From the NCBI GenBank assembly GCA_000004695.1, contig CM000151.3, positions 3,584,001 through 3,648,000 of the forward strand: a stretch of 64,000 bases of DNA, written 5' to 3'. Positions within the stretch are counted from its first letter, which is position 1, and each line of letters begins with the position of its first letter. The position numbers and the translations under genes were made by a program. Below, piece by piece: positions 13,027 to 62,423 of this stretch. The DNA is from Dictyostelium discoideum (Eukaryota). The notes under the pieces are model-generated. The model searched no databases and was not told the DNA's origin. It saw nothing but the letters and a program-made list of their open reading frames with translations.

Positions 13027-17879
<4,853 letters not shown>

Positions 17880-17962
17880 TCAGCTTAATAAATTGTAGTT
17901 ACTTTTTTTATAAGAAAGTGGAAAGATGATAAATTTGTTAAAATGTTTAATAGAAAATTAAA
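17880..17962 (+). other. Relic of an alternative (copy-B-type) cytoplasmic-tail coding segment lying 3' of copy A's stop codon.
   Basis: 17917-17960 ataagaaagtggaaagatgataaatttgttaaaatgtttaatagaaaattaaaaaaactc reads IRKWKDDKFVKMFNRKLKKL. This matches copy B's tail ..IIKKWKDDKFVKTFNRKLKKLS* (22161-22230, minus). The preceding TGATCAGCTTAATAAAT matches the post-stop sequence of copies C/D/E. Confidence 0.7.
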
Positions 17963-18317
17963 AAAACTCTATTTAAATTTCCCCCCTTTTTTTTTTTTAT
18001 TGTGCGGATTGGCCAAACCAAACACTTTTTAATATTTTTTTTTAAATTTTTCAAATCAAACACTTTTTTTTTTTATTTTTTTTTTTTATTTGTTTTTTTT
18101 TTTTATTATTTTTTTTTTTTTTATTATTTTTTCTTTTTTCACCTTTTGGTATTGATTTTTTTTTTTTTCAGACCAGAAGTTTAGGTTTTGGCGATAAAAT
18201 CCAATGAACAGTTTTTTGTTTTTAATTAGAGAAAAAAAAAAAAAAAAAAAAAAAAAAAATTAGTACAAATATTTATATTCAATCTAAAATAATAAAATAT
18301 AATACCTCTAGAAGAAA

Positions 18318-18600
18318 ATGAGCATTCATTCTTTTAGGTTTCATTATATTATTGCTATTATTACTATTATTACTACTATATTGCTATTGCTATCACTATT
18401 GTTACTATTATTACTACTATATTGCTATTGCTATTACTATTATTACTATTATTACTACTATATTGCTCTTGCTATTACTGTTATTACTATTATATTATTA
18501 CTATTACCATTACTACTATATAGCTATTGCTATAACTATTGATATTAATATTTCTATTTCTATTACTATTATATGTATAATTAATTATATTATTATTTTG
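18318..18600. repeat. Imperfect minisatellite built on (CTATTA/CTATTG)n units (ctattattactactatattgctattgctat...).
   Basis: Visible degenerate tandem hexamer/30-mer periodicity; it generates the spurious poly-L/Y/I ORFs 18318..18642. Confidence 0.6.
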
Positions 18601-19340
18601 GTTTTATTAATTATGTTTTTTAAATTGTTTTTATTATTATAAACTAAAAGTGGTTTTTTTATTTAAAATAAAAAATGATCATTTGATTTTAACCAAAAAT
18701 ATAGATGTGATGGTTTAATATTATAATGGCCATAGTTTTTATAAATGAACAATTGTATTTCATTTTATTTATAGTTGGTTAAAATAATGAGTGAATTTTT
18801 TTTTTTTTAACTGTAAAACATTACCCTTTTTTTGAAATAAAAAGAAAATTAAAAAAAAAAAATCAAATTATATTAAATTAAAAACAGTTGGAGATATTTT
18901 CCCCCACTTTTTTTAAAATTAAAAAAAGAAAATAAAAATAAAATAAAAAAAAAATCTTTGATCAAAAATATATTAACTCGGTTGCAATGAAATATTTTAA
19001 GTATTTAAATAGATTTTTTTTTTTTTAACTTTAATTATTTTATTCACTCATATTTTATTTATCTATTATTTTTTTTTTTTCATATTTATTTTATTTATTT
19101 ATTATTTATTTATTATTTATTAATATCATTTTCGTTTATATATTTAAACATACCTCAATTTTATAATGGACTCAACCAAACTATATTGTAATCACAAACT
19201 CAATAGCAATTGCACCAGCCAAAAAAGAAGGGGTTCTACACCATGCCAACCATGCCCAGGATATCCTAAAAAATTAAAAATTTGTTAGAGTTGTTCCTTT
19301 CATCCAAAGGTAATTTGTTTATAAAATAAACAATAAAACT

Positions 19341-19412
<72 letters not shown>

Positions 19413-20190
19413 TAAAATAAATAAATTTTTTTTTATTTTCAAAGAAATTTTAGTATAAAACATTTTTATTGTGTAGTTTTAAATTTTTAAAATTAAAAAC
19501 AAATAAATATTCATAATGATTAACTTGGAAAGTTTTTTAATATTTTATAGTGAGTTTAAACCCTTTTTTTATTTTTTTTATTTTTTTTTTTTTTTTTTTT
19601 GTTTGACTTGGGTGAATTTTTTTAGTGTACACCGTTTAGAAAGCGAAATTTCAAAAAAAATTCCCTTCAACAATTAATTTGCTAAAAACGCACAATATTA
19701 ATTTTTTTTTTTTTTTTATAAAAACTCTATTAATTATTTCCCCCTTTATTATTATTTTTTATTTACAAATGAAAAATGAAACTTTAATTACATTTATGTA
19801 AAAATAATAAAGAGTTTACTTTCACTATTTGATTTAAAGATAAAATAAATTACTATTACTCTTTTCAAGTTTTAATTGGCGAAAAATTAAATTTTGATCC
19901 AAGATTTATCAAAATTTTTCTCACACATTCCGATTATAAAAGTTTTAAGTATGTTGAGTCCAATGAAAAATTTCCAGAAATAGCTCCTCAAAGTGTTTAC
20001 CCAAGTAAGTAAAAATTTTTTAAATTTTTAAAATATAAATAACCTTGTTCTAATTAAAATAAAAGTTTTAGATTTACCCTCACTTTTTCAAAGCATTCAA
20101 AAAAAAGAACATATAACTCAAGATTTAGTTAAACCCTGTTCGAGTATGTATTCATTTTTTTTTTTTTTTTTTTTTTTTTTTGGTGAAAAA

Positions 20191-21231
20191 TAAAAAATTT
20201 CCCAACCTTTTTTTATGTATCATTAAATGATATAATGAAAGAATGTATTTTCATATCAATGGATTTCAATGGTGGAGGTGATGCTTTAGTTGCTGAAGAT
20301 TTAAATCATTCAGATGAAATTGTATTATGTAAAAGGTTATTCAAGATCAGTTTTAGGTCTTTCTTTTTCTAATTCAAAATTAAATAAATTAAATGGAAAT
20401 GAAAATAAATTATTTAATTTAAATGATACGTTACTGAATATTGTAAAAAATAGAACTGATCAAACCAAACCATTAGCAATTTTCATTCATATTGATGAAT
20501 TTCAAATGGCACACCAATATGCAAAAGGATTTGGTAGTCAATATGATAATTTCGTTAAAAAAATGATATAGGCATTAGGAACATTCAAATGTACAGGTAA
20601 TAAAATTAATAAATCAAACGCACACAATAACAATATTTTCATCATACCATTTTTAACTGGAACCAATTCCGATTCATTAGAGATCGTTTTATCAAAATGG
20701 GAGATAGAGAATATAAATATTAAACCATTATCATATGAGTCATCAAAATTAAAAATTAAAAATAATGTTAAATATTTTCCACAATTAGATAATAATTTTT
20801 TTAAAATAATGGTTATCGATCTTGGTATTGTTCCAAGATACTTGGAATATTTGATATCTGATTTAGATGATCATTTTAATTCAATAAAACAAAGAGAACA
20901 TTTTAATAGTTACGGTTCAGATGCATTGATAGATATAGAAAATGAATCGGTTTCAATTCAAATGGTATCCAAATTTGGATTTTCACTCAAAAAACGTATT
21001 CAAAGAATGAGAATTGGTGGCTTCAATGATGAAACTTTGGAAACATTATTATGTTATTGTATATGTGGTAAATCAATCCAAGAATTATCATATGGCGGTC
21101 ACATCATCACACAAAATAGTAAAGGTAATGGTAATTTTAAAATCATCCTTCCTGTTATTGACTTAAACACTATGGCAACCAAATTAAATTTATTCGAATT
21201 TCAAACTATCACACAATTTCCATTATCTTAA
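20191..21231 (+). pseudogene. Fragmented ORF of unknown function. ~345 codons are open in one frame apart from a single in-frame TAG (20569-20571), and there is a frame switch near 20300.
   Basis: ORFs 20314..20571 and 20809..21231 share a frame and the 237 nt between them is also open (ALGTFKCTGNKINKSN...KIMVIDLGIV...). They are separated only by TAG. Upstream, ..DFNGGGDALVAEDLNHSDEIVLCKR is in a different frame. This could be a pseudogene, an unannotated intron arrangement or a sequencing error. Confidence 0.25.
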
Positions 21232-21769
21232 AAATTAATTGGTTTCAAATTCGAGTACATTACTGCTGTTATTTTAATGCTCAAAATAAACTGTACCCAT
21301 AATGTTAAAAAAATCATGGACCACTCACTTTGATTTTTGGTAACCATATAGAAAAAGAGTTTGGCAATCAAAAAGTTTTAAACAGTGTTGTCAGATTTAA
21401 AAAAATGAAATTGGTTTATGAAATTGAAAAGTGGATTATGTTAGTAAATATTTTTTAAAAAAAAAAAAAAAAAATTTTTTTTAATAATTAATTGCAATCA
21501 ACACCAAATTTACCACCTCTGGGAAGTATTTAAGTGAGGCTGATGTTAAAGTATTCATTCAACATATAGATAATTAAAATTAAGTTTCCCAAGTTTTATT
21601 ATTATACCAATTATAATTTCAAATTAAAAAGTTAGAGAATCTCAATTTCCAGCATACAAAGAAATTTTAATTTACCACCAACTTAACATCAATTCTTTTT
21701 TTTAAATACTATTTTGCATAGAGTAGATACAAAAAAATTAAATGAAATAATCTTGTAGTCTTAATTAAA

Positions 21770-21960
21770 TATCATGGTGAATCAACCTTTACACAAACAT
21801 CAATACCTACTATAATTTATCCAAATACAATGTTAATTAATGATGTCAAACCAACTGAAAAACCATTCATTATCAAAGTACAAGAAAATTCAAAATTCTT
21901 TTCAAATGAATTATCTGTTGTGTTGTTATTGTATCAGTTTCTTTCTTATTTTTTAAAAAA
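21770..21960 (+). pseudogene. Truncated fragment of a tgr-like family gene, inverted relative to the neighbouring copy B.
   Basis: Translates to KYHGESTFTQTSIPTIIYPNTMLINDVKPTEKPFIIKVQENSKFFSNELSVV. This matches copy B's IKYYGESTFTQTSIPTISYPNAMLINDVKPTDKPFIIKVQEAFFSNEF but on the + strand with no flanking exons. Confidence 0.6.
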
Positions 21961-22160
21961 AGTAATTCAAAAAAACTCTAAGACAATTAAAACAATTTAA
22001 AAATAAATAAAATCCACTAGTTAAATATATTTTTTTTAAAAATTTTATTTAAATAATTCCATAGAAAAAATTAATTATTTAAAAATCTTTATTTAAACTA
22101 CTCCTTTTAAAAAGGAATAAACTTTTAAAAAATTAATACACAGTATTTTTTATTTGTTAA

Positions 22161-24407
22161 TTATGATAGTTTTTTTAATTTTCTATTAAATGTTTTTACA
22201 AATTTATCGTCTTTCCACTTTTTTATAATAAAATAAGAAGCTGCAACAACAACGACAGCAGCAAAAGCAACGGAACCAATAATAATACCAGCGAGTTGAG
22301 AACTTGTTAGTTTTGATTTATTTGATGTACAAATTGAATTATTATCATTATTTGATACTGGTTTACTATCTACTAATACTGAAAAGTCTGGATCAATAAT
22401 TATTGATTGTTTATAATTTGGTATTGTAATACCAATGAATGATTGTGATATTGATGATGTTTGAATTGAGTTCATTTTTGAATCTAATAATTGATTTTCA
22501 ATTGAAGATACTTTTGAATCGATGATTGCTCTTTTAATGAATCTACCATAAAGTGAATGATCATCAATTTGAATTTTAAAGAAGTTTGAATTATCACCAT
22601 CGCTTGTATCTCCAAATACTTTTAATGAACAAGTATCTTTGGAAGTTGATGATTCGAATAATGCTGACATTACAAGTTGAAGACTATTTAATTGATTTAA
22701 AAATTTATATTCTGTAATTTCAATTGTATATTTAATACTTGATGGATTCATTGTTATATTATTATTTGCAAATTGAATGATTGTTGTTTGATTGAACCAT
22801 TCTAAAGTTACAGTAATATTGGTTGTTAATGTATTTGTTGATTTTGTATCACCACTTTGAATACTTGTAAAGTATTGACTTTTAATATTATTAATTGGTG
22901 TATAAATCCATTTATCAAATGTATATAAATTAACTTAATTTGAATTAAAATCTAATTCTCTTAATGATACAATTGAAATCAATGATTTGAATAAATAATT
23001 TGTACTATTTGATGTTTGATTATTGTTATCGATAATTGGTAATTCAGTTGATGGTTGTGATGTATTTGTTGATGGTTGTGGTATAATTATAACTTGTGAA
23101 TTACAATCATTACCAATCCAAGGTGGATAACAAACACATCCACTTGATGAACAATATCCTTGTTTTGATCCACCACATAATGGTTCACCTAAACATGTTT
23201 GAGGTTTATTCGTTGGTATTGGTGATGATGTAGGTGTTGACGATGACGAGTCTATTGAAGAAGATGATGATGATGGATTTGGTGTTGGGGATTCTGTTGG
23301 TAATTCTGTTGGAATTGGTGGTACAAAACGAATATCAAATACTAATGGATAAACAGTGAATTCATTTGAAAAGAAAGCTTCTTGTACTTTGATAATGAAT
23401 GGTTTATCAGTTGGTTTGACATCATTGATTAACATTGCATTTGGATAACTTATAGTTGGTATTGATGTTTGTGTAAATGTTGATTCACCATAATATTTAA
23501 TTAATACTACAAGATTTGAAGAAAAGAAACCAGCACCTATTATCCATAATTCGCCACCACTTGTTGTAATTTGAGAAACTCTATAGATATCTAACCTTTT
23601 AGCAAGTCCTGATGATACTGCTTTCATTGAAAACTTATACGGGAATAGAATTCTTAGTGAGTCGCTTGAATAACCACCATAACAACCACCATTATTAATT
23701 AATCCATAAACACTGAATGTAATTTCTGAAGTGTACAATACACCTCTTGGTAAGTAAACGTAACATTGATAGGTTGCAGAGGTGATATTCTTTGATTTAA
23801 TAATTGTTTCACATTCAAATATTTGAAATTCAATTGCTTCAACGTAAACCATTGGATATTGAAGATCTTTTAATCCACTTTCGTAATCAGTTGCTTCAAA
23901 TGAGAAATATACTTCCATATGTCCATCTGCAGGAATAGCTACTTGTGGTGTAAATAATGTTAAAATTGGTGGTGAACTATCGATACCATCATTTTCACCA
24001 CTACACTTTTTATATAATTTATTTATTGTTGAGTCTAATAAATAATTTATAAATGGGTTATTAACACCACCACCTACAAATGATTCAGATACTGAAAAGT
24101 AGCAACCAATACCTTGAGTATCATATAATTTAACTTGTGTGATAATATAATTTTGAGATGCACATTTACTTGGTAAAGTTATATTAATTTGATAATCACC
24201 ATTAAATTTATCACCTCTTGTTAAATTTTGAGTTGTTAAATGGAATTTATAAGTTGAACTATCCATTTCACCTCTAACTATAATATCAGCATAATCAAAA
24301 CCATTAATTGGATCATCTATTGTAAATTTCCAACCAAATTCATTTGTTGAATTAACCTTTTCAATATTACTAAATATTGGTCCATATCCATCGAAATCTG
24401 TAGATTC

Positions 24408-24489
<82 letters not shown>

Positions 24490-26989
24490 TTGAAAACTAT
24501 TGATAAATTGTATTTATACCTATATTATAGATACTTACTTGATAATGTTACATATAGTTGTGCAGATGATGGTAAGAATTCACTATCTAAAGGTGTTGAA
24601 TAAGAGTTGATAAAGAATCTATATGGAATATGACCAGGTTGGGTATTTGCAGGTATTTTAAATTTAATTTGATACATTGATATTGTTGAATTCCAAGTTG
24701 AAAAGTATAGTGTTGAACTGTTGAAATGGTATTTACTATTCTTTACTAATGTAACTACGTCCATTAACATAAATCCAATTGGTTTTTCATCATTATCCAT
24801 TCTACCTCCATTATATGTAAAATAAACTACATTATCAACTGATTTATTTATTATATCGATAAAATTATTAAAAAATGTAATATTATTAATAAGTAATAAG
24901 TTATTATTATTATTATTATTTTTATTATTATTTTCATAAAATGAATCAATTTTTAAAAGTGGATTAACTGAATAATATTGACCGATTGAATATGTTTCTG
25001 TTTGTCCCAATCTATCGAATACAATAAATTTGTCAATTGGATATCTGTATGTATCTATAACTGCTGCAAATACAATTTCATCACCTATACTTTCACTATC
25101 TATCATTGATTCATATCTTAATGCAATTGTATTGACATCACCAATACCAACAAATGCTTCATATCCATTATCTTTTACCCTAAATTTTAATAAATAATTT
25201 CCTGAAAATAAATGAACCCATTCAAATTTTAAAAGAATTGGTGCATTTACAGTTGGTGCAACTATAATTTTTTTTTTTTTTTTAAAAAAAAAACAGTTTA
25301 TGTTTTAATGATAATAATAATAATAATATAATAAAAATATATATTAATATTAAAAAATTTAAATATTATTATTATTAATTATTATTTTAAATTTATTTAT
25401 AATAAATTATATACATACTTATATTTGAATTAATGTTGATTAGATTTGTTTTATCAACAGTAAAAACTTTTGGTGAACTAATGAGAGCCTTGTATCTCAA
25501 AAATGAAGCGGATACATTATAATTAAAATTATTACCACTTCCAAAACCAAATGGCCATTGAAAATCTTTTGTGAATAAACCAAATGAATAGGTTGTTGTT
25601 AAGAAATTAAATTGATTTGATGTGGTAATTGTAAACATTGATGAATTTAATAAAAAAATACCATCACTATTAAAGTATGTAACAATAAATGGATTTGGAA
25701 CAAAAGGTTCTTTACTAAATTCTAAATAAAATTATAATAATAAAAATTATTATCATTACTATTAAAATTCATTTATAAAGATATATTTTAAAATACTTAC
25801 TTGTAATATTTAAAATTGGTGTTTCATAGATTTTTATTAAAGAATTATTAAACTCTGAATAAATTGATAATTTTGAAGGTGCTGAATTAATAAGTTGACC
25901 TAAATATGTTACAGTTTTGTCATTTTGATATATTGGTGTTATTTGAGAATAGTTGCTAAACCCATTATTAACTTGAATATAAGGTTCATAATCAACACTG
26001 GTTTTATTTATTGTAACTGAATAAAGTGGAGAATTGTCATATCCATATTCAATTATATTTGTGCTTTCACTTGGATAAATTACAACTTTTGAATTGCTTT
26101 CATCAACATTATAATCTAAAAAATAATAAAATTAAACGAGGATTAATTATTTTTTGAAATTTTTAAATAAAAAAAAATAAAAAAATAAAAAAAAAAAATG
26201 AAAAGTGCAAGTTCAAAAAAAAATAAAAAAAAAATACCTACATGAACTAAATGATGATGGAAATTTTACTGTAATATTATTACCATTATTAAATAAAAGT
26301 GAAATTATATTTTCTTTTGTTAAATTTTGAAATTGATAATCAGAAAATGAAAAACTATTTGGAAATGTTGGTTTGACATTGAAAATTCCCCCACTCGAAC
26401 TTAATGATTTTAGTTTATTTTTTAATCCTGTAAATTGAATAATTCCATTCATTCCTGATTTAGATTTTTTAAAATTATTTGTTAATAAAACCTTATAACC
26501 CAAAGAATTAAATTCAATTACTTTTAAAAAAAAAAATTAGCAATTTAAATAATTTTTTAAAATATTAAATTAATTAATTTAATGGGGCAAATACAAACAT
26601 TCACATTTATAAGATATTGAATAATTTTGTTGAATTTTAATACCATCTGAATTTTCATAAGTTGATGTTAATATTAGACTATCATTTCCTAATGGCAAAT
26701 TTAAACCATTAAAAGATGCATATGCATGACCATCTTTAGTTATAAATGATGATGTATCCAAAACAAAAGATTTAGATAATAAAAATGAAAATGAACTTCC
26801 AGAATAATTTATTATATTAACAGTTTGGATAAAAAATTTAAAATTAAAAGAACAAGTTTGTGAATTTGATGAATCAGGATATACTATATACGAATTTGCT
26901 TCTGAAATATCTGTTATGTTCAATGATTGACTATTACAATAATTTAAAAAAATACAATAAAATAAATACAAAACAAAATTTTTATTCAT
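22161..26989 (-). pseudogene. tgr-like copy B, full multi-exon unit with an in-frame nonsense codon (CAA->TAA, + coords ~22933-22935) and a divergent cytoplasmic tail. Exons ~26989..26590, ~26503..26213, ~26125..25800, ~25720..25393, ~25250..24525, 24400..22161.
   Basis: ORFs 26579..26989 (signal peptide MNKNFVLYLFYCIFLNYCNS), 26213..26503, 25393..25638 (WPFGFGSGNNFNYN), 24525..25106, 22935..24266 and 22161..22751 are all in compatible frames. The ORF 22935..24266 ends ..SLRELDFNSN* where paralogs read ..FNSNQVNLYTFDKW (aattcAaattaagtt vs aattcgaatcaagtt). The downstream ORF continues in the same frame. The intron at 24401-24524 is almost pure (ATT)n. The EGF-like module reads CLGEPLCGGSKQGYCSSSGCVCYPPWIGNDC. 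Confidence 0.65.
24405..24488. repeat. (AAT/ATT)n microsatellite forming most of the homologous intron of copy B.
   Basis: Directly visible. Flanked by ..LSSKYL|GTAAGT (24525) and an acceptor before ..DFDGYGPIF (24400). Confidence 0.9.
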
Positions 26990-28282: not shown

Positions 28283-28695
28283 GAAAATGCTAACAGATAT
28301 AAAATGATAATTAAAAATAATGATGGAGAATCAACAATAAGTGGAAAAGGTAAATTATTTATAATAAATTGAAATAATATATCCAATTTTGTTTATTTAA
28401 ATATTTATTTCAATCCAACATTTAAAAATAATTTTTAGCAATCACATTACCAACTCCAATGATCTTTCCACCACCTCTTTTTATTCGTTTTATTCAATAT
28501 AAAACAGATGGTAAACTTTGGAGTAATGAAAATTTTGAAATCAATAGTGGAAAAGTTGAATGCAATGGAGAAGATTATGAACTTGTTCAATCAAGGTGTA
28601 TAACTCAGAAAATTGATGATGATTCAGAAAATGTAATGGACATTAGAATAATGCCATCTAGACCACTCAATAGAGATTTACCATATTTTAATTAA
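28283..28695 (+). CDS. Small hypothetical protein gene (2 exons; ORF 28459..28695 is the main exon).
   Basis: Exon 1 candidate at 28283 (MLTDIK.. / ..MIIKNNDGESTISGKG|GTAAAT), acceptor ttttag at ~28446. ORF MIFPPPLFIRFIQYKTDGKLWSNENFEINSGKVECNGEDYELVQSRCITQKIDDDSENVMDIRIMPSRPLNRDLPYFN*. Confidence 0.3.
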
Positions 28696-56496: not shown

Positions 56497-57351
56497 TTAA
56501 AATAATATTAAAATTAATAATGATAAACTAATTAAAAGGAAGAAAGATACGTATATTTTTTGGGCATTGCTTTTGCCAGTAGTTGAGGCACCTCCACTAT
56601 TTCCTGCATTTGATGTAGCTCCACCATTTCCAGAAGCGGCTCCAGTTGCTCCACTACCACCAGTTGCTGAGGTACCATTATTTCCAGTACCACCACCACC
56701 AGTAGCACCAGAAGAAGAAGATGTACTTGAAGTATCAACTTTACCATCAATTTTAATTAAATCTTGAATATTTTTTGATTTAATATTTGGACAGGATGAA
56801 ATACTTTTTAATTCTTTATCAAATACACAACCACTGACCCCAGAAGCTTTACGGCAATCAGATGGGCAATTATAACGTTTTACAACATTTCCATTACAAA
56901 GATAACGATTGAAATAACCGTTTGATTGTGGACCAACACATGCACCATTTAAATAAGAATTTAATAAAATGTTTTCACAATCATCATCGGCAAATTGAAC
57001 CAATTCTGAACAGTATCCATTAATTCCTGAAACATTTGCATTTTCATTTAAAAACATTTGAGCCAATGAACCTGTTAAACAATAATTTACATCTTGATCA
57101 TATGCTGATGGAGTTTTTGAACTACAATCACTTGGTGATTTAATACCATATGAAATTGTTACTCTTTTACTTGATTGTGGTACAACATAAATTCCTTTTG
57201 CACATTGTGATGATGATTGAATTGAAATTGGTGTATTTTTACAATCTTTATTATCATACATTGCTTGAATATATTCTAATCCATTTACAACATTTTTAAA
57301 AATACAATAATTTATTACTGTAAATAATAATATAATTTTTAAAATTTTCAT
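56497..57351 (-). CDS. Cys-rich cell-surface protein with Gly/Ser/Thr/Ala-rich stalk and C-terminal hydrophobic tail (GPI-anchor-signal-like).
   Basis: 284-aa ORF with signal peptide MKILKIILLFTVINYCIFKNVVNG and many Cys. It has a GATGGGGTGNNGTSATGGSGATGAASGNGGATSNAGNSGGASTTG stalk and ends ..SNAQKIYVSFFLLISLSLLILILF*. The ORFs 56532..56750 and 56567..56767 are alternative-frame artefacts of the Gly/Thr-rich stretch. Confidence 0.55.
   Translation of the reverse strand: MKILKIILLFTVINYCIFKNVVNGLEYIQAMYDNKDCKNTPISIQSSSQCAKGIYVVPQSSKRVTISYGIKSPSDCSSKTPSAYDQDVNYCLTGSLAQMFLNENANVSGINGYCSELVQFADDDCENILLNSYLNGACVGPQSNGYFNRYLCNGNVVKRYNCPSDCRKASGVSGCVFDKELKSISSCPNIKSKNIQDLIKIDGKVDTSSTSSSSGATGGGGTGNNGTSATGGSGATGAASGNGGATSNAGNSGGASTTGKSNAQKIYVSFFLLISLSLLILILF

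Positions 57352-57807: not shown

Positions 57808-59317
<1,510 letters not shown>

Positions 59318-60878: not shown

Positions 60879-62423
<1,545 letters not shown>

Follow-up and report, generated by a model that had tools for sequence, protein, structure and literature searches.

We analysed a stretch of 64,000 nucleotides (nt) from chromosome 2 of Dictyostelium discoideum AX4 (GenBank assembly GCA_000004695.1, contig CM000151.3, forward-strand positions 3,584,001 to 3,648,000). The whole of this stretch is referred to below as the window, and positions are counted from its first letter unless another sequence is named. The window is very AT-rich (~22% G+C) and contains a gene, here called copy B, whose reading frame is interrupted by a premature TAA codon. 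Comparison of the B region with the window by BLAST showed that a block of ~855-1000 nt is present 5 times, at 97.8-98.2% identity, within a cluster of five genes, copies A to E (Table 1). The predicted products of all five genes have a common architecture, consisting of a signal peptide, DUF7035, DUF7034, an EGF-like domain (DUF7949), the ComC supersandwich domain (ComC_SSD, PF22933), a transmembrane helix and a short basic tail. When the translations were inspected by eye, the N-terminus (MNKNFVLYLFYCIFLNYCNSQ) was recognised as a signal peptide and the C-terminus (...LAGIIIGSVAFAAVVVVAASYFIIKKWK...) as a single transmembrane helix followed by the basic tail. Judged by these predicted features, copies A to E are a family of ComC-type genes annotated as ‘EGF-like domain-containing protein’ and encoding putative type-I membrane glycoproteins. 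In B, Pfam matches were obtained for DUF7034 (8e-21) and DUF7035 (4e-19; partial only because the query open reading frame (ORF) started inside the domain), with stronger matches to both in copies A, C and E than in B, and for DUF7949 (1.4e-15), which lies ahead of ComC_SSD. The ComC_SSD match itself (1.2e-13, profile positions 46-222) was found in frame downstream of the TAA of B, which means that the stop interrupts this domain.

The 5 introns of the spliced B model all conform to GT..AG (donors GTTTGT, GTAGGT, GTAAGT, GTATGT and GTAAGT), have an A+T content of 89-96% compared to 72% in the last exon, and match the introns of C and D in position and phase. The splice-site logic was validated by the C and D models, which are identical to the curated AX4 proteins, and the donor of B intron 1 (26598 vs. 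26604) was picked by analogy with these two copies. No further stop, frameshift or other lesion besides the TAA was detected in the B gene model (26989-22161). The intron at 24538-24398, which contains a long (ATT)n microsatellite, is present within the family only in B and in A (~15500-15700), whereas C, D and E are continuously coding at this position; A and B appear to form a sub-pair, the (ATT)n intron being a gain or a loss within the family.

On the minus strand, B reads GAA TTA GAT TTT AAT TCA AAT TAA GTT AAT TTA TAT ACA (ELDFNSN*VNLYT, with the asterisk denoting the stop). A five-way alignment shows CAA at the corresponding position in A, C, D and E, in agreement with an earlier note on this DNA, which had reported a CAA to TAA nonsense codon in copy B within an otherwise conserved 3' block. 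The same CAA was present in all of the other family copies examined across assemblies (13/13). The stop is situated in the last exon, ~40 residues into ComC_SSD and not at a domain boundary. Beyond it, 257 codons follow in frame before the TAA at 22163-22161 (774 nt with this final stop counted); the earlier note was right in describing the downstream frame as open, but the length that it gave, 590 nt, counts only from the first ATG, at 22751. Given that ~6.5% of the possible single-base changes in the 3' block would make a stop, one nonsense change in a family of five copies is unremarkable by itself. No exact match in the protein collection was found for the 443-amino-acid (aa) and 196-aa ORFs flanking the stop, for the spliced B models (1157 aa, and 1415 aa with Gln at the TAA) or for the 1395-aa model of E. 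A homologue search with the 443-aa ORF of B yielded three distant matches from other taxa, D. discoideum proteins apparently lying outside the search.

Table 1. Coordinates of the gene copies and of the sequence elements of copy B and its surroundings (window positions)
Feature	Position	Strand	Description
Copy A	13027-17879	+	tail-to-tail with B; extra (ATT)n intron in common with B; codon CAA
Copy B	26989-22161	-	six exons; 1415 aa with readthrough of the TAA, 1157 aa if stopped there
Copy C	33571-29046	-	1380 aa, identical to EAL70416.1/XP_644341.1 ‘EGF-like domain-containing protein’; codon CAA
Copy D	38976-34473	-	1378 aa, identical to EAL70417.2/XP_644342.2 ‘EGF-like domain-containing protein’; codon CAA
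Copy E	47521-42926	-	best spliced model 1395 aa, the product length annotated in GCA_054883475.1; codon CAA
Exons of B	26989-26599, 26520-26242, 26115-25801, 25721-25419, 25261-24539, 24397-22161	-	spliced model
Premature ochre stop TAA	22935-22937	-	C>T on the gene strand (plus-strand base 22937) in a conserved Gln codon, CAA
3' homogenised tract of B	23204-22250	-	EGF/DUF7949, ComC_SSD and start of the transmembrane helix; contains the TAA
Second, shorter homogenised tract	24392-24153	-	start of the last exon, GYGPIFSNIEK...YDTQG, in DUF7035
B-type tail	22249-22161	-	...AAVVVVAASYFIIKKWKDDKFVKTFNRKLKKLS, ends in TAA; last ~90 nt, outside the conversion tract
Decayed remnant of B-type tail	17899-17968	+	3' of the TGA of copy A; 90% identical to the B tail; translates to IRKWKDDKFVKMFNRKLKKLY
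Candidate cryptic intron	23005-22934	-	72 nt, GTACAA...ATTAAG; only short in-frame GT..AG interval enclosing the TAA

The earlier note had suggested looking for the TAA in other strains and had left three possibilities side by side, namely, a young pseudogene, a strain polymorphism and a base-call error. We compared the syntenic locus in four further assemblies: GCA_054883475.1 (ACTFIT, L002), GCA_054859355.1 (ACTFIW, L003), GCA_054859385.1 (ACTFIR, L004) and GCA_054859205.1 (ACTFIY, L005, from D. cf. discoideum). The B codon is TAA in ACTFIT, as in AX4, and CAA in ACTFIW; the ACTFIR contig stops inside B, ~310 nt before the codon, and B is absent from ACTFIY, which has only an A-like fragment. 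The ACTFIT locus is collinear with window positions 43585-19037 at 99.85% identity, with CAA in its copies C and D, and its B, at JBTAPE010000001.1:2434347-2439175, differs from the window B by one base over 4829 nt. Where ACTFIT and the window differ, the change is an X>T substitution (on the aligned strand) within a T-rich run, an indel in low-complexity sequence or part of a cluster in low-complexity DNA at 51.2-51.4 kb, a pattern that looks like systematic long-read consensus noise. (The difference at window position 26955, which would turn Cys12 to Phe in the B signal peptide, is probably not real.) ACTFIT, whose genotype is identical or almost identical to that of AX4, was sequenced independently and assembled de novo, and is not a copy of the reference. 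That copy B of this independent assembly carries the identical base effectively excludes a base-call error in the reference, the third of the possibilities listed above.

In ACTFIW, the last exon of B is an uninterrupted frame of 745 codons, and the annotated product of 1393 aa includes ComC_SSD. This assembly is generally divergent from AX4, with 97% identity in a flanking single-copy protein. As every other copy examined reads CAA, the TAA is the derived state, acquired on the AX4 lineage. The two remaining possibilities both stood up to the comparison: the TAA of AX4 and ACTFIT vs. the CAA and intact gene of a divergent strain is what a strain polymorphism implies, and the recurrence of the TAA in ACTFIT, the intact ACTFIW gene, the freedom of B from any other lesion and the status of the C>T change as the sole unique change in the core of the 3' tract (see below) speak for a young pseudogene. 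The comparison supports the view that these two descriptions refer to one and the same thing. The number of family members also varies: AX4 and ACTFIT have copies A to E, ACTFIW has three C/D-like copies together with B and A in the 24.5 kb compared, ACTFIR combines B with an E-like and a single C/D-like copy, and in D. cf. discoideum the A-like fragment is accompanied by an E-like copy and one C/D-like copy, both of which read CAA. From its sequences, the family appears to be one that undergoes birth-and-death turnover.

The last exon of B is a mosaic. In its 3' homogenised tract, the sliding identity to A, C, D and E is 97-100%, compared to 40-85% just upstream. The second tract has 93-100% identity to the paralogues, with the first 60 nt matching C, D and E but not A, and adjoins divergent sequence at its 3' end; between the two tracts, the identity is only 40-85%. 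Over the ~950-nt 3' block, AX4-B is 97.7-98.3% identical to the AX4 copies A, C, D and E, whereas it is 95.2% identical to ACTFIW-B, which is itself nearest to ACTFIW-A (97.6%). Because this block clusters by genome and not by orthology, it has evolved in concert, through gene conversion that was active after the split of the two lineages. Gene conversion keeps the block uniform, and hence the open frame past the TAA says nothing on selection on B.

The comparison of AX4-B with ACTFIW-B in the B-specific part of the last exon gave 18 synonymous and 19 non-synonymous differences, a synonymous divergence (dS) of 0.075 and a ratio of non-synonymous to synonymous divergence (dN/dS) of 0.28 (Nei-Gojobori), with a similar ratio in the 3' block. 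This dN/dS value indicates that, through most of the period after the split, B was a functioning gene under purifying selection. In the core of the 3' tract (~23130-22310), the C>T change is the sole difference unique to B. The whole block contains 6 B-unique changes vs. 3-7 in the other copies, that is, no excess decay; four of the B-unique changes are located at the 5' edge of the tract, among them Tyr and Val variants that also occur in ACTFIW-B and therefore pre-date the stop. Given the lack of an excess of private changes and the absence of any other B-unique change from the core, the C>T change is very recent and followed the last homogenisation of B. Gene conversion would, for its part, mask any decay in B after the lesion. 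The downstream frame is still open because the mutation is recent and because gene conversion keeps the 3' block near-identical among the copies.

The extreme C-terminus of B is of a different kind from that of the other intact copies. A homologous tail (...FLFFKKRKTKLFLKQFNNK, followed by a stop) ends the B orthologue of ACTFIW, and a decayed copy lies beside A (Table 1), such that the claim of the earlier note that B uniquely carries this alternative tail holds among intact reading frames but not for the sequence beside A. The simplest reading is that the B tail would be the ancestral tail of the A/B pair and not a novelty, A and B being regarded as a pair because both have the extra intron and lie tail-to-tail. 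Conversion from a C/D/E-type donor might have run past the stop codon of A and displaced its old tail.

The spacer between A and B is ~4.3 kb long in AX4 and ACTFIT (window 17880-22160) compared to ~230 nt in ACTFIW (L003 21247-21478) and, as its length differs between strains, represents an insertion or deletion polymorphism. It holds small ORFs only, including a 140-aa ORF at 20809-21231 that corresponds to an old predicted protein (UPI0000006F76); the ACTFIT annotation places a 367-aa gene in this spacer. Just past the 3' end of B, on the opposite strand, there is a relic of a B-like gene (21749-21886, plus strand, with an ORF at 21830-22000), which is 94% identical to B 23379-23516, encodes MLINDVKPTEKPFIIKVQE... 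and attests to a past rearrangement or duplication in the cluster.

Taking the sequence evidence together, we consider it very likely that the TAA is a real, very young, lineage-specific truncating or null allele of B, and that B is a polymorphic pseudogene in a birth-and-death family. On the AX4 lineage, a single C>T transition changed a conserved Gln codon, CAA, to the ochre stop. Under this interpretation, translation would end after 1157 of the 1415 residues; the transmembrane helix, the cytoplasmic tail and ~80% of ComC_SSD would be lost, and the truncated product would most likely be no longer membrane-anchored and non-functional. Several points weigh against this interpretation. The genotype of ACTFIT appears to be approximately that of AX4, so that the TAA allele is documented from a single kind of genotype and not from an independent natural isolate, and the TAA may have originated during laboratory culture. 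That the stop is polymorphic within the species rests on the label of the divergent assembly with CAA. Termination at the TAA, the fate of the mRNA and the loss of function are what we infer from the sequence. Finally, GCA_054883475.1 annotates B, despite the TAA, as a 1378-aa protein with ComC_SSD, the same ATG and the same final stop; if this model rests on transcripts, B could still make a near-full-length protein.

Because its start and final stop are unchanged, the 1378-aa annotation must splice around the TAA, which raises the possibility that a cryptic intron removes the codon and leaves B able to encode a membrane protein of nearly full length. The codon does lie within a 72-nt in-frame GT..AG interval, and the four 1378-aa solutions that we enumerated all use this interval; of the three candidate 1378-aa models that were looked up in the protein collection, none was present there (0/3). 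The properties of this interval argue, however, against an intron. Its donor, GTACAA, is weak compared to GTAAGT, GTATGT and GTAGGT of the real introns of B, its A+T content is 82% vs. 89-96% in real introns and 72% in the exon, and no T-rich run precedes its acceptor, ATTAAG. Moreover, the identical donor and acceptor are present in C and D, whose curated AX4 proteins keep these 24 residues as exon, and the 24 conserved residues lie within the Pfam match to ComC_SSD. Gene predictors routinely invent introns that bridge in-frame stops, and the bridging intron in the ACTFIT annotation is considered to be a probable artefact of this kind. Altogether, removal of the TAA by splicing appears improbable.

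It is also unlikely that truncation has made B a functional gene for a secreted, unanchored ectodomain, extending from the signal peptide to the EGF domain and acting, for example, as a soluble ligand or decoy, although the part upstream of the stop (signal peptide, DUF7035, DUF7034 and EGF-like domain) is intact and the family differs in copy number and structure between strains. As a general rule, which may not hold in Dictyostelium, exon-junction-dependent nonsense-mediated decay (NMD) is not expected for a stop in the last exon, and the B mRNA may escape it. Against a functional product, a stop ~40 residues inside ComC_SSD would leave a dangling partial domain, and nothing points to adaptation once the stop had arisen, C>T being the sole unique change in the tract. 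A distinctly improbable extension of this idea is that the TAA would act as a functional switch from an anchored ComC-type adhesion or signalling protein to a secreted ectodomain, would be kept as a polymorphism in a fast-diversifying cluster of cell-surface genes and could be toggled among the copies by conversion; this likens the B alleles to the anchored and soluble variants of recognition systems, and the cluster does adjoin Dicty_CAD adhesion genes. That the T arose in sequencing or assembling the reference, for example as a mis-call or through a chimaeric consensus among the near-identical paralogues, is highly improbable. A block present 5 times at 98% identity is a difficult assembly target, but an independent de novo assembly with a different contig structure and its own error pattern shows this base in its copy B too, and the window has no other copy with a T from which a wrong assignment to B could have come. 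Reading of the TAA as Gln by a suppressor tRNA, or its translational readthrough, is extremely improbable. The ancestral codon is a Gln codon (CAA), and TAA has been reassigned to Gln in some other eukaryotes; nevertheless, B itself terminates with TAA, standard stops bound every long ORF of this window, no tRNA gene occurs anywhere in it (0), and the change is missing from 13 of 13 other copies, as a plain mutation predicts. Furthermore, the context AAT TAA GTT AAT is, to our knowledge, unlike known readthrough motifs.

Between B and C, at 28459-28695 on the plus strand, there is a Dicty_CAD gene (cell-cell adhesion domain, PF05720, E = 3.5e-29). One or two copies of Dicty_CAD occupy the same place in other strains (ACTFIW, L003 14843-15254; ACTFIR, L004 14805-15216 and 15541-15923). 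Elsewhere in the window, tandem flavin amine-oxidase paralogues on the minus strand (57808-59034 and 60879-62084), with DNA that is ~91% identical, represent another local duplication. Identical proteins of this region have two AX4 accessions each, such as EAL70416.1 and EAL71086.1, which implies that the window region is present twice in the AX4 reference; likewise, the ORF at 56497-57351 corresponds to DDB_G0272586/DDB_G0273989. Two gene identifiers per sequence fit what we take to be the known chromosome-2 duplication of AX3/AX4, and the two reference copies of the duplicated region presumably both carry the TAA. We found no publication on the TAA allele or on the cluster of B, and nothing usable in the literature on gene conversion in this family or on NMD in Dictyostelium; a CRISPR paper (PMC13046832) was ruled out as the source of the compared assemblies.

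The interpretation of B as a polymorphic pseudogene places it among ordinary, well-understood phenomena that would not surprise a specialist. As in other polymorphic pseudogenes and birth-and-death families, a single nonsense change affects one tandem member, with an intact allele elsewhere, and the cluster shows copy-number variation as well as nearby fragments and relics; unlike in those cases, the allele of B is seen only in the AX4-type genotype. The sharp tract boundaries (97-100% vs. 40-85% identity) and the greater similarity of paralogues than of orthologues are typical of concerted evolution by gene conversion, except that in the B cluster only two tracts of the last exon are involved, whereas the N-terminal two-thirds and the extreme C-terminal tail are copy-specific. 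Compared to the ComC-type EGF-like proteins of D. discoideum (PF22933, DUF7035, DUF7034, DUF7949), B has the same domain order, signal peptide and single C-terminal helix, but the stop would deprive it of most of ComC_SSD and of the membrane anchor.

For annotation, these findings mean that B carries a genuine premature stop and should be treated neither as an intact gene nor as a sequencing error, and that gene models bridging the stop by an invented intron are probably wrong. The B-unique positions nearest to the TAA are 198 nt upstream (23135) and 636 nt downstream (22301), and at these distances short reads cannot assign the TAA site to B; variant callers would display a fractional ‘T’ allele spread over the paralogues. 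Within the family, gene conversion could later either restore CAA in B or carry the TAA into a further copy. The locus is a small example of how gene conversion may make the putatively dead 3' half of a gene look alive.

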